64,000 nucleotides of DNA from Candidatus Saccharimonadales bacterium. Lineage in GTDB: Bacteria; Patescibacteriota; Saccharimonadia; Saccharimonadales; UBA10212. The DNA lies in contig JBEKOJ010000001.1 of NCBI GenBank assembly GCA_049521895.1, positions 34,717 to 98,716 on the forward strand, written 5' to 3'. The first letter of the stretch is position 1; the number at the start of each line of letters is the position of its first letter. The notes below the pieces were generated by a model that did not search any database, was not told where the DNA came from, and was given only the letters and a program-made list of their open reading frames with translations. Shown here piece by piece: positions 18,363-33,831 of this stretch. Both the position numbers and the translations under genes were made by a program.

Positions 18363-18564
18363 CTCTAGACGCTATAATCTGTAGTTAAGATGACTAGATT
18401 TACCATGGTCAATGCATTTGTTCTTGGGCGAGGAAACAGCGAGGAGCGCAAATGAGGTGTATGAAGCAATACATTGAATGCGCACCGGAGCTAGCTGACA
18501 ATGCTCAAGGACAGAAACTACTTCAGCATGCCGGGCTTTGCTCGGCAACAGGAAGGAGTGGTGC

Positions 18565-19998: not shown

Positions 19999-20187
19999 TT
20001 ACAATGACTATCCGTCACCGTGGTACTACCGAACAAAAAAGAGTTCCCATACCAGATCTTAGCTCAAACTTCGTCTGAGTAAGATTAATAACAATCCGAT
20101 ATCCTACGGATAATCATAGTGTAGTATTATTAGCATCATATTAAGGTGTTACATATATCATTCCGATAACCAGATTAAAAATTTTAC

Positions 20188-20235
20188 TTGACTATTTGAA
20201 TCCGATTAGTTAATCTGTTAGATAGCTAATCTAAC
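20188..20235 (+). promoter_or_regulatory. promoter TTGACT-17-TAATCT with overlapping 7-N5-7 inverted repeat GTTAGAT/ATCTAAC
   Basis: -35 at 20188-20193, -10 at 20211-20216, IR at 20217-20223 and 20229-20235. Confidence 0.45.
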
Positions 20236-20251
20236 TATGGAGGTTAAAAAA

Positions 20252-20821
20252 ATGGCTGCAAAAATTATGGATACATTGTGGGATTTTATAAAATCGGCAG
20301 AACGCAGTAGGAAATATCCACCTAATACCGCCCTGGGTCTAAGAAATGCTCTTAAATTGTTTGAAACGGAGCTCAACGAAGAAGAAGCCCAGTCACTGGA
20401 TGTCTTTAAGGACCATTTGGAGCAAATTTACAGGGGTGTTTTTGAAAAAAATAAGAACCGGATGTCAGTGGGTTCTATCGAAACATACAAAACTCGAGTA
20501 AAAAGAGTACTGAGCGATTACGGCAAGTACGGCCTTGAACCATCTAAATTTGCCTCTTGGTCGCCCACAGTTAAGCGGGTAAGCACTCGGAAGAAGAAAA
20601 CTGAAGATACGAATTCGGTCGTTGGTCCTTCGGTTGGGGTTCCGGCAGATGAATCCCTTGCACCTCCACGGACGCTCCCCTCTGGTGTCATCGTTGTTTT
20701 TCCTAAATCGTTAGATAAACATGTTAGTTTCGGAGAGTTTGGGGATGTATTAAAAGCACTCGACACAAAGGCTAATAATCTGAAGGAAGATACTAATGGA
20801 CAAGGTGAAGACGAATCTTAG
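20252..20821 (+). CDS. hypothetical protein, partner of NYN gene 1 (alternative start 20237)
   Basis: GGAGG sits 9 nt before ATG 20252. Helical N-terminal half, acidic tail EDES. No confident domain. Confidence 0.4.
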   Translation: MAAKIMDTLWDFIKSAERSRKYPPNTALGLRNALKLFETELNEEEAQSLDVFKDHLEQIYRGVFEKNKNRMSVGSIETYKTRVKRVLSDYGKYGLEPSKFASWSPTVKRVSTRKKKTEDTNSVVGPSVGVPADESLAPPRTLPSGVIVVFPKSLDKHVSFGEFGDVLKALDTKANNLKEDTNGQGEDES

Positions 20822-21338
20822 GCCCAAAAGAGTATTTGCTTTCATTGATAGCCAGAACCTACATCTTGGCGTTCAGAGCGCTGGCTGGAAACTGGATTTT
20901 CGCAAATTCCGGCTATATCTTAAAAATAAATATCAAGTATCAAAAGCCTATCTTTTCATCGGCCAAGTTCCTGGGAACGAAGCTATGTACGCTCACCTAC
21001 AAGAAATGGGCAACATTCTAGTATTCAAGCCCACAATGCAGTACAAGAAGGCTGGAAAGATAAAAACGAAAGGCAACGTCGACGCCGAGGTCGTTCTTTA
21101 TGCCAGTGCGATAACATTTAGCGATTATGATCATGCCATCATCGTAAGTGGTGACGGAGATTTTCACTGCCTCATCGAATTCCTAGAAAATAAGGGCAAA
21201 TTACTAAAACTTATGACACCGAATGATCACTACTCGAGTTTATTGCGTCGTTTCTCATCCAAGATCGTGAGGGTTGATCAACTAAAGAGTGCGCTGGAAC
21301 TAAAAAAGACTGGCATCGGCGGTCGGTCGAAACCTTAG
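20796..21338 (+). CDS. NYN (LabA-like, PIN-related) domain protein, paralog 1
   Basis: Sequence AFIDSQNLHLGV ... KGNVDAEVV ... IIVSGDGDF. Overlaps the upstream ORF by 26 nt. Confidence 0.7.
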   Translation: MDKVKTNLRPKRVFAFIDSQNLHLGVQSAGWKLDFRKFRLYLKNKYQVSKAYLFIGQVPGNEAMYAHLQEMGNILVFKPTMQYKKAGKIKTKGNVDAEVVLYASAITFSDYDHAIIVSGDGDFHCLIEFLENKGKLLKLMTPNDHYSSLLRRFSSKIVRVDQLKSALELKKTGIGGRSKP

Positions 21339-21476
21339 GCCTATCCAGTCATCGTGATATCTAAATAATACACCAGTATTTTATTATTGTCAAACATATT
21401 TTTAACACTTTGTAAAGTCTGTGGAAAAGCATAAGTGTTTTAGAGGCAATGGGTAATACTTAACAACCTAAGCAAT

Positions 21477-21503
21477 CCGGATTTCCCAAAACCAGCGTAA
21501 AAT
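21477..21503 (+). promoter_or_regulatory. cassette junction motif, long form, copy 1
   Basis: Sequence ccggatttcccaaaaccagcgtaaaat. A separate TATAAT (21529-21534) sits 8 nt before ATG 21543. Confidence 0.6.
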
Positions 21504-21542
21504 AATTTTCAAAATGATTTAATTAGTATATAATATTGTTCT

Positions 21543-22169
21543 ATGTCGGTTGGTTATGATCCCTCTAGAGGGCCAGTGTATGAGCCTATTACAGACACCC
21601 AGAAGGCACGGATCGGTAGTGCGCTTACTGAGAGAATTGGTCAAGCTGTTATTGTTGATAAATTGGCTAATCGGAGTAGGAACTTCTGGATCTTTAGTTT
21701 TGAAGAACCAGAAGCCGTGATCGACTCAGAAGGCACAATCCCCCAGTATATGATTGTGGCGAGCGAAGGGGACATGGGTGCTACGAGGTGGTTTCGTGTG
21801 TTGGTAAAAAAGACGGGTCTAGGCTCTGGTACACCCAAGACAGAAGCCTATCGCGTGGAAATGTTAAAAAACACTCAATTTGCCGCGAAAGTCAGCAAGG
21901 CAACAGTAAGGCTGGATCATGTAGATGCGACCATTGAAGACAGCGGAGAAGATCAAGACGACCTGGAGGTTGGCTATGTAGTAGCTGCAGTGAGCGGCGG
22001 ACTAACTCCGGCTGCTCAGTCATACTCGGACGTTATGGAATCTGAGCTAGGGTCTCAATGGGCGCTAGGGGAATGTTCTAGCGACGAAGCTGAGCATTTT
22101 GCCGATTTGCTTATCAACTCCAAAGTCAGCGACTTGTCCTTACCAGACCTTGCGACAGGTAACTACTAG
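21543..22169 (+). CDS. hypothetical protein
   Basis: 208-aa ORF with an acidic C-terminal half. No recognisable domain. Confidence 0.4.
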   Translation: MSVGYDPSRGPVYEPITDTQKARIGSALTERIGQAVIVDKLANRSRNFWIFSFEEPEAVIDSEGTIPQYMIVASEGDMGATRWFRVLVKKTGLGSGTPKTEAYRVEMLKNTQFAAKVSKATVRLDHVDATIEDSGEDQDDLEVGYVVAAVSGGLTPAAQSYSDVMESELGSQWALGECSSDEAEHFADLLINSKVSDLSLPDLATGNY

Positions 22170-22178
22170 CCAAGGCAG

Positions 22179-22206
22179 CCCGGATTTCCCAAAACCAGCG
22201 TAAAAT
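22179..22206 (+). promoter_or_regulatory. cassette junction motif, long form, copy 2
   Basis: Sequence cccggatttcccaaaaccagcgtaaaat. TAAAAT ends 8 nt before ATG 22215. Confidence 0.6.
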
Positions 22207-22214
22207 ATAACCAA

Positions 22215-23006
22215 ATGTATAGGTCATTTACGGCTGCGGATTACAGAAAGCACTTTGGTCTGCCTACGGATTATTCCATCGATGGCATCCTTTGCGCAGG
22301 GTCAATTTACTCACACGAAGAAAACGGGCAGCTTAAAGCCGGTTTGAAGGCCATAAACCGACCCTATACTTTACATCAAATAGCCGTAACCGGCAAAAAC
22401 AACCAAGATTTCCTAAGATTTATTAAAGAACTTCATATTGGCAATAAAAAATTGTGGTATTTTTGCATTTACGGCGGTGCCTTACTGAGTGAATACTTGC
22501 ATTTTGGCTACCTTTTCGGAGCCAAGAAAACCATTCTAGTCGGCATGTGTGGGGGATTGAACCAACAGGCGAATGTCGGCGACATTATTATTCCGGATAA
22601 GGCTCATTCCGATGGCAGTACCGCGCATATGTACGACCGTGAGCACCAAGAGCTCCAACCAAGCGACAAATCGCTTTCTGCAGAATTAGAAAAAGTCTGC
22701 CAAGCGCACGGGCTTAACGTGCACCGCGGCAAGACCATGACTTGCCAAGCGATGATAGCTGAAACCTGGGAGGATGTGCAGACCTGGTCCAAAGCCGGAT
22801 ATTTAGGCGTGGAGATGGAGGCCGCTACAGTCTTTGCTGTTTCTAGTCATTTTGAAAAACCTGCCGCCGCCATTTTATCGGTTGCCGATAACTTGATTAA
22901 ACAAGAAACGAACTTGCATGAAAAATATCATGCCGCGGAGGAACACCGATTGGAAGTAAAACAGGCACAATATCAGATCGCAATCAAGATTTTGTTGAAC
23001 GACTAA
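22215..23006 (+). CDS. PNP/UDP-1 family nucleoside phosphorylase
   Basis: Sequence GVEMEAATVFAVS, as in DeoD/Udp-type enzymes. 263 aa. Confidence 0.65.
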   Translation: MYRSFTAADYRKHFGLPTDYSIDGILCAGSIYSHEENGQLKAGLKAINRPYTLHQIAVTGKNNQDFLRFIKELHIGNKKLWYFCIYGGALLSEYLHFGYLFGAKKTILVGMCGGLNQQANVGDIIIPDKAHSDGSTAHMYDREHQELQPSDKSLSAELEKVCQAHGLNVHRGKTMTCQAMIAETWEDVQTWSKAGYLGVEMEAATVFAVSSHFEKPAAAILSVADNLIKQETNLHEKYHAAEEHRLEVKQAQYQIAIKILLND

Positions 23007-23023
23007 GTCTCGCCAAACTTCGG

Positions 23024-23050
23024 CCCGAATTCCCAAAACCAGAGTAAAAT
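23024..23050 (+). promoter_or_regulatory. cassette junction motif, long form, copy 3
   Basis: Sequence cccgaattcccaaaaccagagtaaaat, 8 nt before ATG 23059. Confidence 0.6.
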
Positions 23051-23058
23051 AAGCCAAG

Positions 23059-23448
23059 ATGAGAGCTAATAAACTTAGCATTCAAATTGACTGGCCGGTC
23101 AAAGATGTTTTTAACTTCGTAACCGATCCAGCTAACACTCCAAAATGGATAGATCTTATAGCCAAGGAAGAAACAAACGAGTGGCCAGTGAAACTTGGCA
23201 CTATCTACAAAAATCAAGACAAGACGGGAGAGTGGAGAAATCTCGAGATGACAGAATTTGAAGAAAATAAAATGTTCGTTATGACCAACCGCGCGACTGG
23301 CTATCACGTGAGATATACACTGACACAGCTTGGTAATAACTCAACTGAGCTAGAGTATTACGAATGGATAGATAACGGTGGGTTCGAAGAACCTTTCACG
23401 ATACAACCCTTGGAAAAGCTAAAATCAATTCTTGAAAAACCAGCGTAA
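23059..23448 (+). CDS. SRPBCC (START/AHSA1-like) small ligand-binding protein
   Basis: 129 aa. The N-terminal pattern I..DWPVKDVFNFVTDPANTPKW is typical of SRPBCC proteins. Low-information call. Confidence 0.45.
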   Translation: MRANKLSIQIDWPVKDVFNFVTDPANTPKWIDLIAKEETNEWPVKLGTIYKNQDKTGEWRNLEMTEFEENKMFVMTNRATGYHVRYTLTQLGNNSTELEYYEWIDNGGFEEPFTIQPLEKLKSILEKPA

Positions 23449-23451
23449 AAT
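23435..23451 (+). promoter_or_regulatory. cassette junction motif, core form, copy 4 (contains the stop of 23059..23448)
   Basis: Sequence aaaaaccagcgtaaaat. TAAAAT ends 6 nt before ATG 23458. Confidence 0.6.
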
Positions 23452-23457
23452 AATTCT

Positions 23458-23856
23458 ATGAGTAAGACCTACTGCGTAGCTTCGGCGATCATTAAAAACA
23501 GCGACAAATACTTCATTGCTAAGCGGGCAGATAGCAAAAAATTCGCCCCGGGCCACTGGGAGTTTATAAGCGGTTTTATAGAAGACCACGAAGCCGCAGA
23601 AGATACAATTCTGAAAGAACTCCGCGAAGAAATTAATGCTGAGGGTAGGATTGAAAAAGTACTGGACATCTACCAATTTGGTGATGAACACGGCCGCTGG
23701 ATTGTCGTGCCATTTGTGATTAGCGTAAAAGACTCAAACATTCAAACCAACCCAGCCGAACACAGCGAGGGCAGGTGGGTCGCCTGGGAAGAGCTGGAAC
23801 AGATGCCGGGGGAAGATCTACAAGAACAAGTCAGAGCCCTAAAAACCCGTCTGTAA
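23458..23856 (+). CDS. NUDIX hydrolase
   Basis: Nudix box GFIEDHEAAEDTILKELREEINAEG. 132 aa. Confidence 0.8.
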   Translation: MSKTYCVASAIIKNSDKYFIAKRADSKKFAPGHWEFISGFIEDHEAAEDTILKELREEINAEGRIEKVLDIYQFGDEHGRWIVVPFVISVKDSNIQTNPAEHSEGRWVAWEELEQMPGEDLQEQVRALKTRL

Positions 23857-23860
23857 TCAG

Positions 23861-23886
23861 CCCGGATTTCCCAAAACCAGCGTAAA
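23861..23886 (+). promoter_or_regulatory. cassette junction motif, long form, copy 5, split by a MITE after ...GCGTAAA
   Basis: Sequence cccggatttcccaaaaccagcgtaaa | MITE | taaaat (23957-23962), then 8 nt to ATG 23971. Confidence 0.6.
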
Positions 23887-23956
23887 CCCGGTAGTGAGCT
23901 ATCGAGATTTAATAATGTATCCGCAAAGCGGATAGACTCGAAAGTCTACTACGGGG
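23887..23956. mobile_element. MITE copy C (70-bp internally deleted derivative), target duplication TAAA
   Basis: TIRs are cccggtagtgagctatcgag and ctcgaaagtctactacgggg. TAAA is present on both flanks. Confidence 0.65.
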
Positions 23957-23970
23957 TAAAATAAAACCAA

Positions 23971-24678
23971 ATGAAGGCTGAGGATGTAAAAGCAGCTCTG
24001 GATAAATACACCGATAAAAAAGCTGCAGAATTTGCCCAGCGATTTTTCAAAACCTATGATGGCGGTTATGCCCAGGGCGATAAGTTCCTGGGGCTTAAAG
24101 TTCCGGTAACTCGGGAAGTGTGTAAAAAATTCAAAAATTTATCACTGCCAGAAATAGAAAAATTGCTGGCTAGCCCGATTCACGAGCACCGACTAGCAGC
24201 ACTAATTATCATGACCGAACAGGCCAAGAAAGCGGACTCGGAACATAAAAAGCAGCTTTATGATTTCTACCTAAGTCATACCAACCGTGTAAACAACTGG
24301 GATTTAGTGGACACCAGCTGCCCGGAAATTGTCGGTAGCTATTTACTCGATAAAGACCATACACCCCTGCATAAGCTAGCCCGCTCCAAAAACCTATGGG
24401 AAAAACGGATCGCCATGGTTAGCACCCTAAACTTTATACGTGCCGGCCAGCTAGATGATACCTTTGCCGTAGCCGAAATTTTGCTGCACGACGACCACGA
24501 CTTAATACATAAAGCCGTGGGCTGGATGCTGCGTTGTGCCGGCGACGTGGACAGGGAAGCGCTACTGAAATTTTTAGACGTCCATGCTCACGAACTTCGC
24601 CGCACAGCGCTCCGTTATTCATTGGAGCATCTAACACCAGACCAAAAACTGCACTATATAAACCCAAAAACAGAGTAA
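23971..24678 (+). CDS. DNA alkylation repair protein (AlkD/AlkC-like HEAT-repeat glycosylase family)
   Basis: Sequence AEFAQRFFKT...GDKFLGLKVP ... HEHRLAALIIM ... NNWDLVD. 235 aa. Confidence 0.65.
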   Translation: MKAEDVKAALDKYTDKKAAEFAQRFFKTYDGGYAQGDKFLGLKVPVTREVCKKFKNLSLPEIEKLLASPIHEHRLAALIIMTEQAKKADSEHKKQLYDFYLSHTNRVNNWDLVDTSCPEIVGSYLLDKDHTPLHKLARSKNLWEKRIAMVSTLNFIRAGQLDDTFAVAEILLHDDHDLIHKAVGWMLRCAGDVDREALLKFLDVHAHELRRTALRYSLEHLTPDQKLHYINPKTE

Positions 24679-24681
24679 AAT
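24666..24681 (+). promoter_or_regulatory. cassette junction motif, core form, copy 6 (contains the stop of 23971..24678)
   Basis: Sequence aaaaacagagtaaaat, 6 nt before ATG 24688. Confidence 0.6.
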
Positions 24682-24687
24682 AGGGCT

Positions 24688-25248
24688 ATGAAAAACGCGA
24701 TTTTATTACACGGCACAGACGGTAATCCAGAACACAACTGGTTCCCATGGCTCAAGCGAAAACTGGAAGCCAAGGGCTATAAAGTCTGGGCGCCAGTATT
24801 GCCCGGAAACCATACCCCGAATAGAAAGATCTATAATGATTTTATTTTCTCGCAGGGCGGGGACTTAACGGATGGCATAGTCGTTGGCCATTCATCTGGA
24901 GCAGTGAGCGTACTGAATTTACTTATGGATAAACGGTGTCCAAAAGTGAATCTTGCAGTAATGGTCAGCGCTTGGAAGGGCGGGGTACCGCTCCGATACG
25001 AACCGGACAACCAGCAATTCAAAGATTTATTCCCGCCGGATGGTTTCGATTTTAAACTGATAAAGGAAAAAGCAGGGAAAATAGCTTTTCTTCATAGTGA
25101 TAACGACCCCTATTGCCCGCTTGAACAAGCAGAATACCTTGCTAAACAGCTACACGCACCACTTACTGTCATACATGAGGGCGATCACTTAGGCTCCAAT
25201 CTCACAGAATTACCAGAGCTTTGGAAGATAATAGAACCAGTCTTGTAG
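24688..25248 (+). CDS. YdeN/RBBP9-type alpha/beta serine hydrolase
   Basis: Sequence ILLHG...NWFPWLK ... VGHSSGA ... D ... H. 186 aa. Confidence 0.55.
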   Translation: MKNAILLHGTDGNPEHNWFPWLKRKLEAKGYKVWAPVLPGNHTPNRKIYNDFIFSQGGDLTDGIVVGHSSGAVSVLNLLMDKRCPKVNLAVMVSAWKGGVPLRYEPDNQQFKDLFPPDGFDFKLIKEKAGKIAFLHSDNDPYCPLEQAEYLAKQLHAPLTVIHEGDHLGSNLTELPELWKIIEPVL

Positions 25249-25256
25249 AGGGAATA

Positions 25257-25288
25257 CCCCATAGTAATATCTGCGATATACTACGGGG
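25257..25288. repeat. 32-bp hairpin with MITE-like termini (CCCCATAGTA ... TACTACGGGG), preceded by GGGAATAC
   Basis: Read directly from the sequence. No target duplication, so this may be a solo-TIR remnant or a terminator. Confidence 0.4.
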
Positions 25289-25354
25289 CAGGCTTAACGA
25301 GTCAAGCAACTGGCAGTATTGCTAATAGACAGTAAAGATTATATAATTTATCTT

Positions 25355-25936
25355 ATGACTAGATCCGGAGCAGAAATATCACCCGTCGAATCCAGTGAGG
25401 AGCTGGCACAAGCGTGGAAAGAATATGGATTCGATCCGCCTGGAGGCGTAGATGCTTGGGCGGAAGCCGTAGAAGCTGATCGAAATGGCGTTTTAGTCGC
25501 GCGACTTTCTGCGATGGCTGTTGGTTTTGTGACCGTGAAGTGGTCCGGACCTTCTGTGCGCGAGCCTGAAGTTACGGAGGCGCTTACTACTGAATTTCCG
25601 GATGAGCAACCAATCCCAACCATCTATTCGCTTAACGTCCAGCAGCAACATCGAAGGAAGGGGATAGGCTGGGACCTGATGGTTGCTACCGAACACGCCA
25701 TAATAGATAGGCCTGGCACTGTCCTGCGTTCTGCTCTGAGTGTGCAAACTAATAACAAGGATGCCCTGCCACTTTATATATCTTTAGGCTACCAAATCGT
25801 GCCATATAGGGGTCGAAAAATGGTGGTTCTGGATCGCCCTGAGTATGACGAGCAAGGTCAACTAGTTCGTAGCACTAAACCAGTTTTTATTATGACCAAA
25901 GATTTATCTGACCTTCGCAAAAACAGAGTAAAATAG
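25355..25936 (+). CDS. GNAT family N-acetyltransferase
   Basis: Acetyl-CoA motif QQHRRKGIGWDLM. TATAAT (25342-25347) sits 7 nt before ATG 25355. The track start at 25319 is TTG. Confidence 0.65.
   Translation: MTRSGAEISPVESSEELAQAWKEYGFDPPGGVDAWAEAVEADRNGVLVARLSAMAVGFVTVKWSGPSVREPEVTEALTTEFPDEQPIPTIYSLNVQQQHRRKGIGWDLMVATEHAIIDRPGTVLRSALSVQTNNKDALPLYISLGYQIVPYRGRKMVVLDRPEYDEQGQLVRSTKPVFIMTKDLSDLRKNRVK
25919..25934 (+). promoter_or_regulatory. cassette junction motif, core form, copy 7
   Basis: Sequence aaaaacagagtaaaat, 9 nt before ATG 25944. The GNAT ORF reads through it in another frame. Confidence 0.6.
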
Positions 25937-25943
25937 GTCCAGC

Positions 25944-26660
25944 ATGAGCCCTGGAACTACAAGACCGCGCAACGAAGTTTTCGATAGGGAATTAGTGCGC
26001 AGCATCTTGGACAAAATGGGCAGGGACGACAGATATACCACGCGCGAAATGGCAACCCTGACTTTTGAACAACTCTATTCCCAGCTTAATCAGCCGGAAA
26101 TTGAAGTAGTAAAACAGCTGCTTGCACTTAGTCCTGAAAAACTTGGATTTCTAGGCCCGTTTGTGAGCCTAGAAGGGCCACCCAAAAATCTGGTCAAGCT
26201 AGAGGGCCAGGTATTTGAAAGGGATGGTAAAAAAGTTACCATTGCCAACCAATATTTGCCGCAACCTGTCTGGCAGGCTTTTTTAGAAATGCAAGAAGCT
26301 ACCAAACAGGATATAGGCAGCAAACTGATGGTAGAGTCGGGCTACCGCTCGCCGGCCCATCAATCTATAACTTTTCTAACGTATTTAGAAAAATCAGATT
26401 TTGATATTAAATATGTAGTTTCTGGAGTGGCTCTACCTGGCTATAGCCAGCATGGCGATCCGGTTAACACAGCCGTGGATGTTATAAATCAAGACGGCAT
26501 ACCAACAGATGAAAAGCCGCAACTTTTTGCCAATACAAACGAGTACCAGTGGCTGATTAAGAACGCCAAACAATTTGATTTCTATCTGTCTTACCCAGAG
26601 GGCAATGAATTTGATGTTAAGTTTGAACCTTGGCACTGGCAATACAGAAAAACAGAGTAA
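25944..26660 (+). CDS. VanY / peptidase M15B-type D-alanyl-D-alanine carboxypeptidase
   Basis: Sequence SGYRSPAHQ ... SQHGDPVNTAVDV ... EPWHWQY (zinc ligands of H-D-H type). Confidence 0.7.
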   Translation: MSPGTTRPRNEVFDRELVRSILDKMGRDDRYTTREMATLTFEQLYSQLNQPEIEVVKQLLALSPEKLGFLGPFVSLEGPPKNLVKLEGQVFERDGKKVTIANQYLPQPVWQAFLEMQEATKQDIGSKLMVESGYRSPAHQSITFLTYLEKSDFDIKYVVSGVALPGYSQHGDPVNTAVDVINQDGIPTDEKPQLFANTNEYQWLIKNAKQFDFYLSYPEGNEFDVKFEPWHWQYRKTE

Positions 26661-26663
26661 AAT
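26648..26663 (+). promoter_or_regulatory. cassette junction motif, core form, copy 8 (contains the stop of 25944..26660)
   Basis: Sequence aaaaacagagtaaaat. The next gene has a 31-nt leader with an AAGGAG SD. Confidence 0.55.
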
Positions 26664-26694
26664 AGATCGAGAACATAACTTAAGGAGTAGGTAT

Positions 26695-27036
26695 ATGGCT
26701 GGCGGCCGGGAAGAACAAGTCCTTGAAGGAACAAACGGGAGGCTATTCCGGTGGCCCGATGGTAAGCCCCCCGAAATAACAACATTGCTTGTGGACGGAA
26801 CCGTAGATTCACTAATAGCTACAGGCATATTCCGGTCGCTGGGTTTTGGATCGGTTATAGAGCGGATGAAGACTAACCCGAATTTCCCCAGGCAGTGCCC
26901 TGAGCTGTGGATGGTACATCCACCGCAAGAGGAAGGAGGGCAAGGGGTTGTCGAGGTGGCCCGGGGGCTACGCGAGATCCACATCTCATTCGTCAGTAAA
27001 TTAGTGGAAGTGCAGCCAGTACCAGAGGTACACTAG
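26695..27036 (+). CDS. hypothetical protein (113 aa)
   Basis: ATG follows AAGGAG. The in-frame upstream part of track ORF 26575 overlaps the VanY-like gene. Confidence 0.35.
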   Translation: MAGGREEQVLEGTNGRLFRWPDGKPPEITTLLVDGTVDSLIATGIFRSLGFGSVIERMKTNPNFPRQCPELWMVHPPQEEGGQGVVEVARGLREIHISFVSKLVEVQPVPEVH

Positions 27037-27044
27037 AGTAGGTA

Positions 27045-27070
27045 AGGAATACTTAACTCGTTAAGTAATT
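27045..27070. repeat. GGGAATAC-hairpin repeat, copy 2
   Basis: Sequence aggaatacttaactcgttaagtaatt, abutting ATG 27072. Confidence 0.55.
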
Positions 27071-27071
27071 T

Positions 27072-27542
27072 ATGAAAAATTACATCCCACCCGAAAAACG
27101 ATTCAAGCTGATTCTCTCTGTCTATTTAATTTTAATCAAAGATGGGAAAACTTTATTATTACGGCGTCAAAACACGGGCTACGAAGATGGCAACTATGGC
27201 CTTGTGGCAGGACACGCCGATGGTAATGAAGTGGCTAGGGAAGCGCTGTGCAGGGAGGTGTTGGAAGAATCAGGCCTGAGATTTAAGCCTAAAGATTTCC
27301 GGTTCGTCCACTTAATGCACCGCAAGGCCAATGATGAACGGGTGGACGTTTTCTTTACTGCCGACAAATGGCAAGGCGAACCAAAAATCATGGAGCCAGA
27401 AAAGTGCGACGATCTCAGCTGGTTTCCGCTAGACAATTTGCCGAGCAACACCATTCCGTATATTCGCCAAGCTATAGAATGCTTTCAAAAAGGTATTTAT
27501 TACTCCGAATTCGGCTGGAATGAACGGGCGGGGAATACTTAA
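27072..27542 (+). CDS. NUDIX hydrolase (second, unrelated copy)
   Basis: Nudix box GHADGNEVAREALCREVLEESGL. 156 aa. Confidence 0.8.
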   Translation: MKNYIPPEKRFKLILSVYLILIKDGKTLLLRRQNTGYEDGNYGLVAGHADGNEVAREALCREVLEESGLRFKPKDFRFVHLMHRKANDERVDVFFTADKWQGEPKIMEPEKCDDLSWFPLDNLPSNTIPYIRQAIECFQKGIYYSEFGWNERAGNT

Positions 27543-27557
27543 CTTGTTAAGTAATTT
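27531..27557. repeat. GGGAATAC-hairpin repeat, copy 3 (supplies codons GNT + stop of the Nudix gene)
   Basis: Sequence gggaatacttaacttgttaagtaattt. Confidence 0.55.
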
Positions 27558-27575
27558 ATAAAAATAACTTGATTT

Positions 27576-27609
27576 AAAAAAAGGCGAGGGGGCGGCGTTG
27601 CCGCCCCCT
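27576..27609 (-). terminator. GC-rich hairpin + T-run terminator for the high-GC minus-strand gene
   Basis: Minus strand reads agggggcggcaacgccgccccctcgccttttttt. Confidence 0.5.
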
Positions 27610-27624
27610 GTTGTTCGCGCGCTG

Positions 27625-28158
27625 CTACTTGAGCGTGGCGATGACCTGAGGCGTAAGCCTGAGGACGACGCCGCGCAGATCGGTTTCGATCAGCTGGCCC
27701 ATGGTCTTGAACCCCATGGCCGTGACCGCCTGGTACTTGCCTCCCGAGTTCGGGCTGCGCCAGTCCAGAACGCCGTCGTCGCGGTAGTCCTTGAAGTAGA
27801 CGACGCGGTTGTAGCTGAAGACGGCACTGGCCCTCTTTGCGTCCGCGATGCGGACGTTTTCGGCCGGTACGACGATCTTGATCGTCTGACCGCAGCCGTT
27901 GCGAGCGTTGAGCGTGATCATGAAGGCGGTGTTGTCGCTGGCCTTCGTAACCGCGCAGACTGCGTGCGGCATGTTCGGGTTCCAGCCGCGAACCTGCAGG
28001 AAGTTCTGGACCGTGACTTCGCGGTTGAAGTCGTGGTCGGCCCACGGGTTCCAGTTGCTCGGCCAGATCGCGTTGATGCCGATCGCAATCGTGGCGATGA
28101 TCGCCGCGCAAATCACGACCCACACTGCGTCGAATGCGAAATCGGTAAGCCTCCGCAT
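27625..28158 (-). CDS. membrane-anchored hypothetical protein on a high-GC foreign segment
   Basis: 177 aa with N-terminal TM AVWVVICAAIIATIAIGI. AAGGA SD, own terminator, GC-rich third codon positions. The other four overlapping ORFs here are high-GC artefacts. Confidence 0.55.
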   Translation of the reverse strand: MRRLTDFAFDAVWVVICAAIIATIAIGINAIWPSNWNPWADHDFNREVTVQNFLQVRGWNPNMPHAVCAVTKASDNTAFMITLNARNGCGQTIKIVVPAENVRIADAKRASAVFSYNRVVYFKDYRDDGVLDWRSPNSGGKYQAVTAMGFKTMGQLIETDLRGVVLRLTPQVIATLK

Positions 28159-28270
28159 TTCTTCACCATCCTTCCCCGAGTTATCGGAGTAGAAGTTGAA
28201 ATCTCAGCGCGAACTGTAATATTCTACAATATTAACGCATAAATAGCAATACCATTCTCAAATATGATAA

Positions 28271-28296
28271 CTCGGATTTCTAAAACAGGGTAAAAT
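28271..28296 (+). promoter_or_regulatory. cassette junction motif, diverged long form, copy 9
   Basis: Sequence ctcggatttctaaaacagggtaaaat, 8 nt before ATG 28305. Confidence 0.55.
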
Positions 28297-28304
28297 AAGG
28301 CAGC

Positions 28305-28850
28305 ATGAAGAAACTAGGGATTTTATCTGGAACTTTTGATCCGGTGCACAAGGGGCACGTTGATTTCGCGCTTGAGTCCATAAAAGTTTGCGGGCTAGAG
28401 CGGGTATATTTGCTGCCAGAGCGGTCACCCCGCCGAAAAAAAAATCTAACCGATTTCGCCCATCGTCTTGAGATGTTAAAACTAGCCGCAGGGTCCCACA
28501 AGCAATTAGAAGTTTTGCAGGTATCCGAGCCCCGATTTACAAACGCTGTCACTTTGCCAAAGCTCCGCTCGCAATTTGCCCCGGACCAGCTGGTGTTTTT
28601 AATGGGTTCTGATGTGGCAGCCACCTTAGGTGGTTGGCCCGGGCTGAAGCCGTTAATAGTTGGTTTGCGCAACAATGACGATAGGCGCGAGTTGGAAAAG
28701 CTTCTAAGTAAGCTAAGAGTTTTGCGCCAGACGACATTTATAACCAGTCCGCGTGCCCAGCTCGCTTCCAGCCAACTGCGGAACAGCCAGCTAAAAGACC
28801 TCGATCCATTGGTGCTTGCTTACATTAAGCGCCACAAACTTTATAGCTGA
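28305..28850 (+). CDS. nadD: nicotinate/nicotinamide-mononucleotide adenylyltransferase (NadD-like cytidylyltransferase fold)
   Basis: Sequence GTFDPVHKGH (HxGH) and C-terminal SSxxxR-like LASSQLRN. 181 aa. Confidence 0.7.
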   Translation: MKKLGILSGTFDPVHKGHVDFALESIKVCGLERVYLLPERSPRRKKNLTDFAHRLEMLKLAAGSHKQLEVLQVSEPRFTNAVTLPKLRSQFAPDQLVFLMGSDVAATLGGWPGLKPLIVGLRNNDDRRELEKLLSKLRVLRQTTFITSPRAQLASSQLRNSQLKDLDPLVLAYIKRHKLYS

Positions 28851-28899
28851 GCGCGGTATCCTACTGGTGTAAAATGGAAAGATAAAGGAAGGATTTCTT

Positions 28900-29520
28900 A
28901 TGAAGTTAACCAGATATTATCAAAGTTGTTTATTGATTGAAGAGGGCAGGGTGCGGATTTTGATTGACCCCAGCGGCCACGAAGCCGGAAATTTTGACAA
29001 GTTTGGCAAGCTGGACGGCGTGCTATACACCCACGAGCACACGGATCACTTCGACCCGGATTTGGCACAAAAATTTGCCGGCAGCGGTGTAGCAGTTTAC
29101 GCTAACGCTAGCACTGCCAAACAAATGAAATTGCAGCCGACTGTCATTTCCGACAATCAGGAATTTGACATTAAGGGCCTAAAAATCCAGGCCAGGGAAC
29201 TGCCGCATTGCTTGATGGTTAGCGGCGACGCTGGCCCACAAAACACCGGCTATTTAATTGCTGGGCGGCTGTTCCACCCGGGCGACGGTACCAACCTGGC
29301 GGGCCTGAGCACTGAAATCCTAGCTGTACCCATCACCGGCCCGGATATCTCCTTAAAAGACGCTTGCGACTTTACAAAACAAGTCTCAGCCAAGATTGCC
29401 GTGCCAATACACTACGATTTTATCGGCACCAAGCCGGAAATTTTTGAAATGTTTGCTAAAAACTCCCAGTTGCCATTCGAGGTGAAGGTGCTGGGGCCGG
29501 GCGAAAGCACCGAGCTATAA
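28900..29520 (+). CDS. MBL-fold metallo-hydrolase
   Basis: Sequence YTHEHTDHFD (HxHxDH). 206 aa. AAGGAAGG SD. Confidence 0.7.
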   Translation: MKLTRYYQSCLLIEEGRVRILIDPSGHEAGNFDKFGKLDGVLYTHEHTDHFDPDLAQKFAGSGVAVYANASTAKQMKLQPTVISDNQEFDIKGLKIQARELPHCLMVSGDAGPQNTGYLIAGRLFHPGDGTNLAGLSTEILAVPITGPDISLKDACDFTKQVSAKIAVPIHYDFIGTKPEIFEMFAKNSQLPFEVKVLGPGESTEL

Positions 29521-29636
29521 AAACATAAGCTTTACCATAAAAACAGCTCGTTGTAAAAGTAACTAGCAAAATATTATTGACTAGCTCTCAGCTAAAGTGC
29601 CATATTATTCTCAGCTAAGTAATTGGAGGCACGGAA

Positions 29637-30215
29637 ATGAAGGGCATGGGACGCTGGCTGGTGCTGCTCAGGGGCATGGCGGTTATTGGTGCGGTAGGAG
29701 TTATAACAACTGGCGCTAGTTTTGCGGCCCTGCAGAGCCAGAACGCTTCGCTGACTGGTAATATTATCAATAGCGGTACCGCCGACCTTAGGATTAGCAA
29801 AGACGGCACTACTTTCTATTCGCCGTCAACCACCGGTTATACTTTTGACGGCGTCGTGCCGGGCGGAGCGGCTGCTCCAGTAGGCGGTAATTTGTTTTAT
29901 CTTAAAAATTACGGCAGCGCCAATCTGGCCATCAAAGTCGGCATCAACGCCGCGCCATCCAACGTCAACAATGTGGATCTGAGCAAAGTTTATTTTCAGT
30001 TTACGAGGGTGGATAGCAGTGGCAGCCCCGTTAGCTTATCGCTAAAATCCTTAGTGGATAGTTATGCCGCCGGAGGCACGCCACTGAGTGACACCGTAAA
30101 CGCTGGCTCAACCGCGACTTACAGCGTTAAAGCTTCTATGGATATGGATGCCTTTGCCGGCTCGAGCGCCAGCCTTACCGGCATCAACCTGTCCTTTATT
30201 GGCACCGGCGCTTAA
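29637..30215 (+). CDS. TasA/camelysin-like secreted protein with SipW-type signal peptide
   Basis: N-terminus ...AVIGAVGVITTGASFAALQSQNASLTGNIINSGTADLRIS resembles the TasA-type A-x-F...GTLDL signal region. GGAGG SD. Followed by a signal peptidase gene. Confidence 0.55.
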   Translation: MKGMGRWLVLLRGMAVIGAVGVITTGASFAALQSQNASLTGNIINSGTADLRISKDGTTFYSPSTTGYTFDGVVPGGAAAPVGGNLFYLKNYGSANLAIKVGINAAPSNVNNVDLSKVYFQFTRVDSSGSPVSLSLKSLVDSYAAGGTPLSDTVNAGSTATYSVKASMDMDAFAGSSASLTGINLSFIGTGA

Positions 30216-30235
30216 ACGCAGGAGAGGAAAACAGC

Positions 30236-30760
30236 TTGTTTAAAAATCTGGCGCACCACCTTTCTATTATCACCTTGGGGCTTTTTACCATTGTCGGAAT
30301 TATTGGCTTGGTGCGTTGGCAGGGCAGTGGTATCCGTTTATACAGCGTGAAAGATAGTTCTATGGCGCCGCTGCTGCTGCCGGGAGATTTGGTGTTGGCT
30401 GCCAGCCGGCAGACTGCCCAGCCAGGAGACATAGTCAGCTATCTTAGCCCGCAAGACCAACACACAATTATTGCCCGCAGATTAGTGGCGGTTGATCCAT
30501 CTAAAGGTATTATTACCACTAAAGCCGATAACTTGGTACAGGCCGACCCGCCGGTGATAACCGATGCGGTGCTGGGCAAAACGCTTAAAGCCGTGCCGCT
30601 GTTAGGATATTTGCTGGATACGCTGCGCCGCCCTGCGGGCCTGGCTGTCTTGGTTTATGTACCGGCTTTTGTGATCATTCGCTCCGAGGTCAAACGTCTA
30701 AGCCGGCAATTTGGCCGCCGCCCGTACAATCTCAAATTACTGACCTCTGTTACGAGCTAA
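30236..30760 (+). CDS. signal peptidase I, SipW/ER (S26B)-like
   Basis: N-terminal TM and catalytic-Ser motif SSMAPLLLPGDLV, then GDIVSY...H. TTG start after an AGGAGAGG SD. C-terminal TM. Confidence 0.6.
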   Translation: MFKNLAHHLSIITLGLFTIVGIIGLVRWQGSGIRLYSVKDSSMAPLLLPGDLVLAASRQTAQPGDIVSYLSPQDQHTIIARRLVAVDPSKGIITTKADNLVQADPPVITDAVLGKTLKAVPLLGYLLDTLRRPAGLAVLVYVPAFVIIRSEVKRLSRQFGRRPYNLKLLTSVTS

Positions 30761-30780
30761 TCTAAACTTCAATTTTTTAT

Positions 30781-30796
30781 CAAAAACCAGTATAAT
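30781..30796 (+). promoter_or_regulatory. junction-motif variant CAAAAACCAGTATAAT
   Basis: TATAAT ends 10 nt before ATG 30807. Confidence 0.5.
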
Positions 30797-30806
30797 AACC
30801 CCTGTT

Positions 30807-31034
30807 ATGAATAATGTAAATTCAGGCGAACATTTACCCCCAACGCCTAGCGGCGATGAGCTTGATCAAGAGAGGGGAATCCTCGAAAATCCACAAGGTG
30901 GCCCGGTGGCAATCACCTATATGAAGGGCAACGAAGTTATTCACTATAGATTCATTAGCCGAGAAGAGTTTGATAGATGGCACGAAACTCACCCCGGACA
31001 AGTAATTGAAGAAATAGATGCCGAAGAATCCTAA
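30807..31034 (+). CDS. small hypothetical protein, partner of NYN gene 2
   Basis: 75 aa with acidic tail AEES. Overlaps the NYN start by 17 nt. Confidence 0.4.
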   Translation: MNNVNSGEHLPPTPSGDELDQERGILENPQGGPVAITYMKGNEVIHYRFISREEFDRWHETHPGQVIEEIDAEES

Positions 31035-31572
31035 GAAACCGCGGGCTTACGCCTTTATCGACAGTCAAAATCTCAACCTGGGCGTACAAAAAATGGGCTG
31101 GAAAATGGACTGGCGTAAATTCCGCCAATATTTGCAGCACGAGTACAACGTAGAAAAAGCCTACATGTTCATTGGCTATGTGGCCGACAACATCGCCATG
31201 TATGAGCAGCTGCACGACATGGGCTACTTGATAGTTCTGAAACGCACGCTGGAAGTCAAAGCCCAGGAAGGCGAAAAAACCGATGACGGCGAGCCCCAGA
31301 AACCAACAGTGAAGGGGAATATTGACGCCGAGCTGGTGCTGTGGGCCATGAAAGAGCTGCCCAATTACGATAAGGCTATTATCGTATCTGGCGACGGCGA
31401 CTTTTTTGCCCTAGTGGAATACCTGGAGCAGAAGCAAAAGCTGCTGCACTTAATGGTGCCAAACTGGCAATATTCATCACTTCTCAAAGAGTACGAAAAA
31501 TACACCGTGCGGATTGATAAACTACGCCGCCAACTGTCTTACCACGACCGCCGCTTCAAAAAGAATACTTAA
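31018..31572 (+). CDS. NYN (LabA-like) domain protein, paralog 2
   Basis: Sequence AFIDSQNLNLGV ... KGNIDAELV ... IIVSGDGDF. Collinear with 20796..21338. Confidence 0.7.
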   Translation: MPKNPKKPRAYAFIDSQNLNLGVQKMGWKMDWRKFRQYLQHEYNVEKAYMFIGYVADNIAMYEQLHDMGYLIVLKRTLEVKAQEGEKTDDGEPQKPTVKGNIDAELVLWAMKELPNYDKAIIVSGDGDFFALVEYLEQKQKLLHLMVPNWQYSSLLKEYEKYTVRIDKLRRQLSYHDRRFKKNT

Positions 31573-32345: not shown

Positions 32346-32461
32346 CTAGAACTTCTATCATTAAACCCCATTGTAGATCTCTTGAGATAGGTGGACAAAT
32401 GTTTGTTTTACCACAACCCGTATTTAGGAAATAGGCAAATAGTAGTGATGCTACAATAGGG

Positions 32462-33824: not shown

Positions 33825-33831
33825 TTAATCC

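Follow-up and report, generated by a model that had tools for sequence, protein, structure and literature searches.

A conserved promoter-like gene-junction motif in a salvage and repair gene array of environmental Saccharibacteria

Introduction

Why should nearly each gene in a run of unrelated genes be fronted by the same short sequence? The question is raised by a block of about 7 kb (21.4-28.9 kb) in a 64-kb stretch of Saccharibacteria (TM7) DNA, hereafter the window, which comes from a contig of 769,618 bp in a peat-metagenome genome. A preliminary description of this block left two explanations for the repeated sequence, called here motif-1: a dedicated promoter copied in front of each gene, or the footprint of a cassette-assembly mechanism. 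We compared the block with its relatives and with known systems, and favour the former.

The gene array

The block is an array of small salvage, detoxification and repair genes read from one strand (+), bounded by proS and GH1-mraZ genes and separated by intergenic gaps of 7-50 nt. Pfam assigned its genes to PNP_UDP_1, Polyketide_cyc2/SRPBCC, NUDIX, DNA_alkylation (AlkD), Ser_hydrolase, VanY and CTP_transf_like, which bore out the gene calls made earlier, except that the GNAT gene and the second NUDIX gene had been missed.

21543-22169, + strand: hypothetical protein, 208 aa, no Pfam match; own TATAAT at 21529-21534
22215-23006, + strand: nucleoside phosphorylase family gene (PNP_UDP_1)
23059-23448, + strand: SRPBCC gene (Polyketide_cyc2); last codons (..EKPA*) and stop lie within the next motif-1 copy
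23458-23856, + strand: NUDIX hydrolase gene
23971-24678, + strand: AlkD-like DNA alkylation repair gene; C-terminus (..INPKTE*) encoded by the next motif-1 copy
24688-25248, + strand: YdeN-like serine hydrolase gene (Ser_hydrolase)
25355-25936, + strand: GNAT acetyltransferase gene; own TATAAT promoter (25342-25347), not motif-1
25944-26660, + strand: VanY-like D-Ala-D-Ala carboxypeptidase gene; stop codon supplied by the TAA of the motif-1 copy that follows
26695-27036, + strand: hypothetical protein, 113 aa
27072-27542, + strand: second NUDIX gene, flanked by the 33-nt direct repeats of motif-2
27587-28158, - strand: opposite-strand ORF of 177 aa (27625-28158), G+C 61.8%, strong terminator at 27587-27609; probably foreign DNA lodged in the junction
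28305-28850, + strand: NadD-like nucleotidyltransferase gene (CTP_transf_like)

Motif-1 and the other junction elements

Searching the window for AAAAMCAGMGTAAAAT with up to two mismatches gave 10 matches against 0.33 expected, a number reached by none of 100 shuffles, so the repeat reported in front of nearly every gene is real. Every match lies on the + strand within 21488-28296: seven are exact (21488, 22191, 23035, 23436, 24666, 25919 and 26648), two carry two mismatches (23873 and 28281) and one, inside a gene at 23494, is at chance level. The four short-core sites of the preliminary description (23435, 24666, 25919 and 26648) are all exact copies, the first being numbered 23436 here; its long form, given at 21477, 22179, 23024, 23861 and 28271, is exact at 22179, the other four being variant or split.

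21477-21503, + strand: motif-1 long form TCCGGATTTCCCAAAACCAGCGTAAAAT, starting with TCC; orphan or tandem copy, the next gene (21543) having its TATAAT
22179-22206, + strand: motif-1 exact long form; TAAAAT ends 8 nt before ATG 22215
23024-23050, + strand: motif-1 long-form variant CCCGAATTCCCAAAACCAGAGTAAAAT (CCCGAATTCCC..CAGAG), with a 1-nt deletion and substitutions; 8 nt before ATG 23059
23435-23451, + strand: motif-1 short form overlapping the SRPBCC 3' end; 6 nt before ATG 23458
23861-23886, + strand: split motif-1, 5' half CCCGGATTTCCCAAAACCAGCGTAAA (..CAGCGTAAA), interrupted by the hairpin that follows
23887-23955, + strand: 69-nt REPIN/MITE-like hairpin with ends CCCGGTAGTG.. and ..CTACTACGGG; -28 kcal/mol, z = -5.0
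23956-23970, + strand: split motif-1, 3' half GTAAAATAAAACCAA (GTAAAATAAAACCAAATG); TAAAAT ends 8 nt before ATG 23971
24665-24681, + strand: motif-1 short form CAAAAACAGAGTAAAAT; 6 nt before ATG 24688
25257-25288, + strand: 32-nt hairpin CCCCATAGTAATATCTGCGATATACTACGGGG, 3' of the hydrolase gene
25918-25934, + strand: motif-1 short form inside the GNAT 3' end; 9 nt before ATG 25944
26647-26663, + strand: motif-1 short form, then a leader of about 30 nt with AAGGAG and ATG 26695
27046-27078, + strand: motif-2 left copy GGAATACTTAACTCGTTAAGTAATTTAT, palindrome TACTTAAC-NN-GTTAAGTA; 33-nt direct repeat
27532-27564, + strand: motif-2 right copy; 33-nt direct repeat
28271-28296, + strand: motif-1 long-form variant CTCGGATTTCTAAAACAGGGTAAAAT (CTCGGATTTCTAAAACAGGG); 8 nt before ATG 28305
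30781-30796, + strand: distant variant CAAAAACCAGTATAAT before a 75-aa ORF at 30807, below the weight-matrix threshold

The core of motif-1 consists of an A-tract, MCAGMG and TAAAAT; intergenic copies add CGGATTTCY upstream. In many species AAAACCA(N)ATG comes after the core. Its conserved positions span about 17-25 nt, more than a plain -10 promoter requires. Motif-1 shows no structure, either as RNA or as DNA (-0.6 kcal/mol, z = +0.5), which makes it unlike attC, as had been noted before; it contains no inverted repeat and Rfam returned no match for it. Copies with no gene directly behind them are found at 21488 in the window, and at 7204 and 3828 in the related loci L128 and L163.

An independent weight matrix, trained solely on the instances of other species, found 10 sites in the 6.8 kb between 21487 and 28280 of the window. 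Nothing credible was found in the window's other 57 kb, where the one passing site (58368, - strand) has a background score, and a further 42 kb of housekeeping DNA from this genome (L224 and L225) yielded no site. Motif-1 is thus confined to the block in the sequence available (64 kb and 42 kb), instead of standing before genes all over the genome.

Conservation across relatives

The module, of about 25-37 nt, is kept in at least 8 other Saccharibacteria-type genomes and nearly always at the same locus, where copies lie just 3' of proS or adjoining GH1/mraZ. The flanks of the array are fixed across relatives, with RecO-proS at one end and NYN-GH1-mraZ at the other, and each relative examined has the NYN-domain gene in its array; gene content and order between the flanks vary gene by gene, so that the perfect synteny that would have spoken against the earlier reading is not what we found. 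When one genome per species was scanned, 85 stretches contained the pattern, 11 of them from Saccharibacteria/Patescibacteria, including all four stretches with multiple matches; in the two genomes with several matches, these lie on one contig each. With the weight matrix, 10 of the 13 passing sites in relatives fell within the array.

The window and 11 loci from relatives together supplied 35 matches of CAGNGTAAAAT. Without exception these are on the same strand as the following gene, and 29 have an ATG 6-9 nt after TAAAAT; three upstream A's and the A after TAAAAT are invariant, though the search pattern does not demand them. The module also follows particular genes: it is kept upstream of the Ser_hydrolase gene in the window, L128, L163 and L188, and of the VanY gene in the window, L128 and L185, despite different neighbours. 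Conversely, motif-1 at the 3' end of the AlkD and SRPBCC genes is retained in several species while the downstream gene differs, a pattern equally compatible with a promoter and with a junction or recombination element.

Promoter features and the favoured reading

In the seven cases reported earlier (genes starting at 22215, 23059, 23458, 23971, 24688, 25944 and 28305), TAAAAT indeed ends 6-9 nt before the ATG. The same distance is found elsewhere: in the 52 genes that lie outside 21.4-28.9 kb, -10-like hexamers are most frequent 6-9 nt ahead of the start codon (11 genes, compared with about one at each other distance; for example ggaTATAATcgcatttaaATG and aggTATAATaactcctATG), and the hexamer also occupies this position at divergent intergenic regions, which have no upstream cistron. 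TAAAAT is, judging from these sequences, the ordinary -10 box of the organism, and TATAAT-like hexamers so close to the ATG of many window genes imply leaderless mRNAs. The block-specific part is (CGGATTTCY)AAAAMCAGMG on the 5' side of the hexamer, often with AAAACCA preceding the ATG; AAAAMCAGMG precedes the hexamer in none of the 52 outside genes. Motif-1 showed no -35 match and did not pass a standard two-hexamer promoter scan.

Where the ATG is farther from TAAAAT, a Shine-Dalgarno sequence (AAGGAG) lies between them, as from 26648 to 26695 in the window and in L135 h67, which is how a leadered promoter would be expected to look. The NadD-like gene at 28305 lies 3' of the antisense gene and of the region's only strong terminator, and consequently needs its own promoter; the 28271 copy of motif-1 is directly upstream of it. 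Similarly, the AlkD gene of L128 is preceded by an inserted gene ending in a hairpin, and has a motif-1 copy directly upstream.

We consider it fairly probable, at roughly 0.6, that motif-1 is an array-associated promoter and gene-junction module without a -35 box, belonging to an environmental clade of Saccharibacteria; from its observed anatomy, spacing, orientation, array restriction and cross-species conservation we infer promoter activity, a leaderless start and a dedicated factor. In this scheme TAAAAT would act as the -10 box, with no recognisable -35 box, and transcription would begin at the first base of the ATG, or no more than about 3 nt away, yielding leaderless mRNAs, a mode of expression apparently also used by many other genes of the genome. 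With a start site required for each leaderless gene and gaps of 7-50 nt between genes, the module runs into the 3' end of the preceding gene, as seen for the VanY, GNAT, SRPBCC and AlkD genes, and its two TAA triplets provide that gene with stop codons in two reading frames. AAAAMCAGMG, the stretch of about 10 nt on the 5' side of the hexamer, is conserved between species and absent from housekeeping promoters, and may be recognised by a dedicated factor, which could be a regulator or a particular way in which sigma/RNA polymerase makes contact. If so, the salvage, repair and detoxification array from proS to GH1-mraZ would form one expression programme. We identified no cognate regulator or alternative sigma factor for motif-1, and the literature on this lineage yielded no relevant transcription start or promoter data. 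The dedicated promoter proposed earlier is preferred here for its hexamer spacing, similar to that of other leaderless genes, its uniform orientation and its conservation before different genes.

Alternative explanations

Motif-1 could instead be an ordinary generic promoter, repeated merely since the stretch has many short genes, with nothing specific to the block. TAAAAT and its distance to the ATG are typical of the genome, and GTAAAATA-like -10 boxes occur elsewhere in relatives (e.g., L131 h194 and MBL), but the absence of AAAAMCAGMG outside the block, the confinement of weight-matrix sites and the clustering of the species-scan matches on one contig per genome make this very improbable; for the sequence available it is already largely refuted, in agreement with the preliminary description. 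An RNA-level signal, which we regard as improbable though somewhat less so, would make the array polycistronic and the module a site either of translational termination and re-initiation, driven by UAA..UAA, an A-rich unstructured spacer and AUG, or of cleavage, e.g., by the array's NYN-domain nuclease, freeing monocistronic mRNAs with a 5' AUG. The genes share one strand and no intrinsic + strand terminator separates them, the TAA within motif-1 is the stop of the upstream gene at 23448, 24678 and 26660 and likewise in many relatives, the module is A-rich, and the NYN gene is constant. However, the long-form copies at 22179 and 23024 sit 10-45 nt past the upstream stop, so termination coupling is not general; the 28271 copy follows an antisense gene and terminator, hexamer and spacing alike correspond to the -10 boxes of unrelated genes, and a Shine-Dalgarno sequence is present where the spacing is longer.

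The module might also be a cassette junction, that is, portable homology or a site for a recombinase by which single-gene units, each carrying a promoter, are inserted, excised and shuffled beside proS, a system functionally analogous to an integron but lacking IntI and attC. This is unlikely, though less so than the other two. Besides the variable content between fixed flanks, L128 carries a foreign gene of 59% G+C, with its own promoter and hairpin, between two direct module copies of about 33 nt (CCCGAATTCCC(C/A)AAACCAGCGTAAAATAAGAAC), the arrangement expected if a circle had integrated through a single crossover at the module. The second NUDIX unit is missing from L128, a sister lineage, the deletion ending precisely at the 33-nt repeats of motif-2 (repeat family D12, 94% identical), and homology between the window and L128 restarts exactly at the 5' edge of the 23436 copy. 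In upstream genes from unrelated families the motif encodes the C-terminal tail (KTSVK*, KPA* and KTE*, all usable frames), and the genome encodes DprA, a DNA-uptake protein. Against this, tight packing places any intergenic breakpoint almost unavoidably in or beside the motif, and the only sharp recombination edge mapped, that of the near-identical block common to the window and L128, lies within AlkD (~24150) and not at a motif. An identical AlkD protein occurs in 46 collection blocks, and the 24 contigs read from them present a single arrangement, indicating slow array turnover. Copies within a genome are hardly more similar than copies between genomes (0.51 vs 0.48, permutation p ~0.04), a marginal difference that gives little sign of recent copying or homogenisation. 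The main ORFs scanned in the 64 kb contained no domain of a tyrosine/serine recombinase, transposase or integrase, in line with the earlier remark that no integrase is visible, and motif-1 has neither inverted repeat nor fold. Cassette assembly is not demonstrated; some unit-level indels are bounded by duplicated module copies, so the module may have a secondary role, unproven, as portable homology for gene shuffling.

Comparison with known systems

Extended -10 promoters, lacking a -35 box and driving leaderless mRNAs, are found in Actinobacteria and Deinococcus. Motif-1 resembles them in having TANNNT 6-9 nt before the start on the gene strand, with neither Shine-Dalgarno nor -35 box, and differs in adding about 10 conserved nt (AAAAMCAGMG), the optional CGGATTTCY and AAAACCA after the hexamer, and in its restriction to a single gene array and its conservation between species. 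With integron arrays (IntI, attI, attC) the block shares small unrelated single-gene units on one strand, variable content and an element at every junction. Unlike them, it has no integrase gene among the main ORFs scanned, its element lacks the form of an imperfect palindrome and, whereas most integron cassettes have no promoter, bears promoter features, and close strains show no cassette turnover; the block holds no look-alike of integron machinery.

Putative mobile promoters were defined as sequences of 50-100 nt with at least 80% identity (Matus-Garcia, Nijveen and van Passel 2012, PMC3488235). They too are near-identical upstream sequences before non-homologous genes, some common to several taxa, but the stretch shared by motif-1 copies is 16-38 nt, overlaps coding sequence and belongs to a single locus; motif-1 looks old and selected, not recently copied. 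REP/REPIN and MITE-type repeats are matched in the array by the 69-nt and 32-nt hairpins, with their GTAG-type ends and strong folds, whereas motif-1 has a direction and no fold, and keeps a fixed position with respect to start codons. The 69-nt hairpin is inserted within a motif-1 copy and has GTAAA at both flanks, and the 32-nt hairpin is kept in L135 with one compensatory pair change.

Occurrence and anatomy of motif-1

The junction sequence (CGGATTTCY)AAAAMCAGMG followed by TAAAAT, often with AAAACCA before the ATG, recurs before the genes of the array, a same-strand run of small salvage, detoxification and repair genes between proS and GH1-mraZ. From its sequence and placement, this module (motif-1) is best explained as a predicted leaderless promoter and junction module associated with a variable accessory-gene array beside proS in Saccharibacteria. 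The preliminary description had reported a near-identical sequence in front of nearly every gene, and a search with AAAAMCAGMGTAAAAT allowing ≤2 mismatches bore this out, giving 10 matches for 0.33 expected, a number that no shuffle reached. All matches in the 64-kb window are on the plus strand, between 21488 and 28296, and the copies are distributed as follows.

21488, 22191, 23035, 23436, 24666, 25919 and 26648, plus strand: the seven exact copies of motif-1
22179, plus strand: exact copy of the long form
21477, 23024 and 28271, plus strand: close variants of the long form
23861, plus strand: copy in two halves on either side of a 69-nt insert, the TAAAAT half lying at 23956
23448, 24678 and 26660, plus strand: TAA within motif-1 serving as stop codon of the preceding gene

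Five positions had earlier been put down as the long form, a description that holds exactly for 22179 and not for the other four. The claim that TAAAAT ends 6-9 nt upstream of the ATG in seven cases stands, and the use of the module's TAA as a stop codon is new. Pfam recovered the genes already named (PNP_UDP_1, SRPBCC, NUDIX, AlkD, Ser_hydrolase, VanY and the NadD-like nucleotidyltransferase) and added a GNAT gene and a second NUDIX gene.

The longest stretch common to the copies is 38 nt, with 63-89% identity (repeat family D1). The motif-1 region is unstructured, folding at only -0.6 kcal/mol (z = +0.48), and has no Rfam match at E-values up to 1; an RNA structure or an attC-like one was rejected on these grounds. 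Because only 7-50 nt separate the genes, the module reaches into the 3' end of the preceding gene, where it encodes the tails of unrelated proteins (KTSVK*, KNRVK*, KPA* and KTE*), in the two frames where it supplies a TAA. Since unrelated proteins receive motif-encoded tails in two frames, the conservation lies at the DNA level and is not a property of protein tails.

Distribution across species and within the genome

A scan of one genome per species with AAAAMCAGMGTAAAATAN{5,8}ATG returned 85 stretches, 74 of them single matches in unrelated taxa. Saccharibacteria/Patescibacteria account for the other 11, among them all four stretches that contain more than one match; where a genome had several matches, as two did, they all lie on a single contig of that genome. 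The Saccharibacteria loci are positioned just downstream of proS or beside GH1/mraZ. A metagenome-wide scan with AAAAMCAGMGTAAAATA gave single chance matches among the matches listed, and a scan of viral contigs with CAGMGTAAAATAAAACCA gave three unrelated single matches without the A-tract, so that a phage origin has no support. The consensus across species, (CGGATTTCY)AAAAMCAGMGTAAAATAAAACCA(N)ATG, is longer than the motif first described. All 35 instances are co-oriented with the following gene, and the flanking A's are invariant in them though the search pattern did not demand it. Degenerate versions (..GCGTAAAATAAAACCAAGATG) occur at most array junctions, even in the relative whose AlkD is 59% identical. 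In other species, the genes behind motif-1 encode Ser_hydrolase, Abhydrolase, HAD, VanY, deoxyribosyltransferase, flavin reductase, RibD_C, cyclase and peptide deformylase proteins.

A weight matrix built from the other species only found 10 sites in the window, all on the plus strand at 21487-28280, with nothing above chance elsewhere in it and no site in another 42 kb of housekeeping DNA from the same genome; in the relatives, 10 of the 13 passing sites fall within the array. The earlier statement that motif-1 is not simply the generic promoter is thus upheld for the window, these 42 kb and the relatives' loci. Some sites do lie outside the array. Three relatives (L226 3040, L133 2723 and L135 850), unlike the window, have a motif-1-like site where xseB ends, ahead of the small gene that follows, and L187 carries a full copy in front of a 410-aa gene that comes after a 403-aa ORF, the surrounding region being syntenic with window 400-3500. 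Strict confinement of the module to the array thus does not hold in every species.

Motif-1 as a predicted leaderless promoter

The upstream regions of all 64 window genes were listed and the distance of a TA[ACT][AT][ACT]T hexamer to the start codon was profiled. Outside the block the distance also peaks at 6-9 nt, with 11 of 52 genes for about one per distance elsewhere, genes at divergent intergenic regions included. Because this peak extends outside the block, leaderless transcripts from a -10 box lacking a -35 are the predicted normal mode of this genome, and the TAAAAT of motif-1 is, on sequence grounds, its putative generic leaderless -10 box. The block-specific part is (CGGATTTCY)AAAAMCAGMG, carried by no gene outside the block in the window. 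A TANNNT hexamer on the gene strand, 6-9 nt before the start and without a Shine-Dalgarno sequence, is present at seven window genes and in 29 of the 35 instances across species; where the motif-to-ATG distance is larger, a Shine-Dalgarno sequence lies in between (26648 to 26695 in the window, and gene h67 of L135). The module is also kept upstream of orthologous Ser_hydrolase and VanY genes across species while their neighbours differ.

No -35 hexamer (TTGACA-like, 16-18 nt upstream) or TGn extended -10 was seen at motif-1, the preceding bases being CAGMG. As a result, a two-hexamer consensus scan misses the copies, except for two marginal 9-of-12 matches. ECF-sigma promoters need a spacer of 16-17 nt; inspection gave 10-11 nt between GGATTT taken as -35 and CGTAAA taken as -10, and the ACAGAG variants lack CGT, so that this reading was rejected. 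Motif-1 would act as a -35-less promoter for leaderless mRNAs, as predicted from the match of its hexamer, spacing and orientation to the leaderless architecture of the genome. The segment AAAAMCAGMG sits at about -22 to -13 and its conservation exceeds the needs of a plain -10 promoter, from which we infer that a dedicated factor or contact, still a candidate, may read it. No candidate cognate regulator was found, the conserved neighbours being a stand-alone receiver domain, RecO and an HD protein; a protein with Sigma70_r4 and HARE-HTH domains is encoded in the window at 48529-49566, and nothing ties it to motif-1.

The module could alternatively serve polycistronic coupling or RNA processing, given the same-strand layout without terminators, the stop codons embedded in it and the constant NYN nuclease gene. 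This role is contradicted by the long-form copies that lie well past the preceding stop codon, by a motif-1 copy that follows an antisense gene and by a hexamer and spacing identical to those of promoters without an upstream cistron. The copy in question lies upstream of the NadD-like gene, right after the antisense gene and the only strong terminator, and in the sister lineage L128 the copy upstream of AlkD likewise follows an inserted gene that brings its own hairpin. Both are places where the gene behind would need a start of its own, as expected of a promoter.

Gene content of the array in relatives

The window holds housekeeping genes elsewhere (SecA, PrfA, FtsEX, PyrG, XseAB, RecO, ProRS, TopA, DprA, Der and GltX) and the mraZ cell-division and cell-wall gene cluster. 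An identical AlkD protein is encoded on peatland metagenome contigs, with one gene order in every copy read. The homology of the flanks, together with the scan of one genome per species, assigns the organism to Candidatus Saccharibacteria. The relatives' contigs, reached through AlkD homologues with 59-95% AlkD identity, all conserve the flanks, with a response-regulator receiver, RecO and ProRS on one side and NYN, GH1 and MraZ on the other. Between these flanks lie small same-strand genes whose content and order depend on the lineage, and the interval from proS to mraZ varies gene by gene (L128, L131, L133, L135, L138, L226, L185/L188 and L163/L177).

Array genes found in relatives
AlkD, Nudix, SRPBCC, alpha/beta and YdeN-type hydrolases, MBL, glyoxalase, PNPOx
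Peptidase S51, peptide deformylase, nucleoside deoxyribosyltransferase
Cupin; toxin-antitoxin pair Fic/MazE

Since content and order differ between lineages, the array is not perfectly syntenic. Genes of the NYN domain (LabA-like nuclease) bracket the window array at 20796-21338 and 31018-31572, and one NYN gene is constant at the distal array end in every relative examined (L128, L131, L133, L138, L162 and L226). PADLOC gave domain-level matches only, of a NUDIX protein to the candidate PDC-S07 (8.5e-20) and of NYN to a generic LabA-like model (~1e-6), and found no complete defence system, leaving a defence-island reading without support.

Comparison with known systems and the question of gene shuffling

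Integrons possess an adjacent intI-type tyrosine recombinase gene, and no Phage_integrase, recombinase or transposase domain was detected among the main ORFs scanned in the 64-kb window, in agreement with the preliminary description, which saw no integrase. It had also judged the repeat unlike attC: attC sites, found at the 3' end of the cassette, are imperfect inverted repeats that form single-strand hairpins, whereas motif-1 has no such fold (z = +0.48) and the repeat search reported no inverted pairs at array junctions. Integron cassettes are mostly promoterless and depend on a common Pc promoter, whereas here a -10-like hexamer lies within the junction repeat, at leaderless distance, ahead of seven genes. 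The feature that both share is that relatives differ in which whole units they possess. With three of the four defining features lacking in the window, the array is not an integron. REP, REPIN and MITE sequences are palindromic or hairpin units dispersed in extragenic DNA, unlike the unstructured and clustered motif-1; it is the hairpin inserts, for example the 69-nt one at 23887-23955, that have the REPIN/MITE-like structure. Putative mobile promoters are upstream regions of 50-100 nt with ≥80% identity before non-homologous genes (Matus-Garcia et al., PMC3488235); motif-1 resembles them in preceding non-homologous genes, but is shorter, occupies one locus and is conserved across species.

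The array could still be imagined as an integrase-free gene-shuffling locus whose working parts are motif-1, the palindromic motif-2 and the inserting hairpin elements. In naturally transformable Saccharibacteria, promoter modules of 25-37 nt would act as portable homology, through which single-gene units with their own promoter, foreign ones included, might be integrated, excised or reordered in a fixed proS-mraZ landing pad; a captured gene would arrive with a leaderless promoter or receive one at once, and the work of an integron would be done without IntI or attC. We regard such a locus as improbable, and unit exchange through the modules as a secondary and unlikely possibility, not as a finding. 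Several arrangements are suggestive of it. In L128 a gene of 59% G+C with its own TGGTATAAT promoter and hairpin lies between two direct module copies of about 33 nt, and in the corresponding slot of the window a 69-nt hairpin element interrupts the module between two GTAAA sequences, a composite found at the same insertion point before a different gene in another species. The second Nudix gene lies between 33-nt direct repeats of motif-2 (GGAATACTTAACYYGTTAAGTAATTTAT) and is missing from L128 exactly to those repeats, and a 61.8% G+C antisense ORF is lodged in another array junction.

Against this, the ORFs scanned in the 64-kb window include no recombinase and motif-1 has no attC-like fold, and contigs encoding the identical AlkD protein were not seen to differ in their units. 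On its left, the near-identical window/L128 block ends sharply within AlkD and not at the motif, for which reason motif-1 was rejected as a recombination breakpoint; and given the gene density, intergenic breakpoints land at motif-1 by necessity. Motif-1 copies are barely more alike within a genome than between genomes (0.51 versus 0.48, p ~0.04), a difference on which recent copying or concerted evolution was rejected. Both sub-types, CCAGCG and ACAGAG, are present in several species, and this, together with the near-equal similarity, makes the repeats look old and selected, not recently spread.

Significance of a candidate leaderless promoter module

The literature searched contains no account of motif-1 or of the array, nor any transcription start or promoter data for Saccharibacteria/Patescibacteria, and motif-1 is a real and conserved feature, apparently undescribed. 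To our knowledge, almost nothing is known of transcription initiation and gene regulation in the ultra-small, host-dependent CPR/Patescibacteria. The locus offers a concrete, conserved candidate promoter of 25-37 nt, with the parts CGGATTTC, TAAAAT, AAAAMCAGMG and AAAACCA, and a sharp prediction, that of leaderless starts at, or up to 3 nt upstream of, 22215, 23059, 23458, 23971, 24688, 25944 and 28305, and of a start near 26670 for the leadered gene at 26695. The proS-mraZ interval is a conserved position in Saccharibacteria for changeable nucleotide-salvage, repair and detoxification enzymes, with probably foreign DNA lodged there. For new Saccharibacteria genetic systems, two candidate tools arise, the module as a portable promoter and the array as a neutral insertion site. 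Were the module to mediate unit exchange, it would represent a new recombinase-independent route to gene-cassette arrays.

Hairpin elements, motif-2 and other observations

The 69-nt hairpin inside motif-1 (23887-23955) has GTAG-type ends, CCCGGTAGTG.. and ..CTACTACGGG, folds at -28 kcal/mol (z = -5) and is flanked on both sides by GTAAA. It also occurs at the same motif position in L177 (~4965-5070, minus strand), before SRPBCC instead of AlkD, and related half-copies lie in the window at 14798-14845 and ~52215. This suggests a REPIN/MITE targeting motif-1, or a composite module moving as one piece. A 32-nt hairpin is found downstream of the serine hydrolase gene (window 25257-25288, L135 6535-6566 and L128 ~9135-9166). 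Its conservation across species includes one base pair in which T>C is compensated by A>G, and a motif-2 copy appears to be divided by this hairpin into GGGAATAC and ..TTAAC.

Motif-2, GGGRATACTTAAC-NN-GTTAAGTAATT, is an 8-2-8 palindrome, often directly before an ATG or just past a stop codon, and may act either as an operator or as a gene-end element. Its window copies are at 7450-7474 (outside the array), 21451-21476, 27046-27078 and 27532-27564, and relatives carry it in L128 (5577, 5994 and 10922), L135 (~8350), L138, L148, L185, L188 and L218.

Two array junctions hold high-G+C genes, at 27587-28158 of the window (minus strand, 61.8%, the window as a whole having 48.8%) and at L128 7328-7732 (59%), each with its own terminator-like hairpin, and both look like foreign insertions. 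The window ORF, of 177 aa, has only three homologues among 5.8 billion proteins, which is uninformative on its origin.

Compared with L128, whose arrangement is common to three independent assemblies, window 15001-34869 is a mosaic, with ~94% identity over 15001-16842, ~83% around proS, no homology over 20044-23435, 80% in the Nudix gene, 96% over 23956-27081 and not one difference over 28930-34869. Such a pattern indicates recent recombination between lineages differing at the species level.

Short intergenic tandem repeats occur at ~3784-3920 and ~7490-7530, where (CCATTTA)n follows 3783, (ATTGTAA)n precedes 3923 and (AAACTAT)n precedes 7547. At 45709-49566 (minus strand), a gene for an 892-aa DUF87/TrwB-like ATPase adjoins one for a 345-aa protein with N-terminal Sigma70_r4 and C-terminal HARE-HTH, followed by TopA and DprA; together they may represent DNA-uptake or transfer machinery with an unusual DNA-binding protein.
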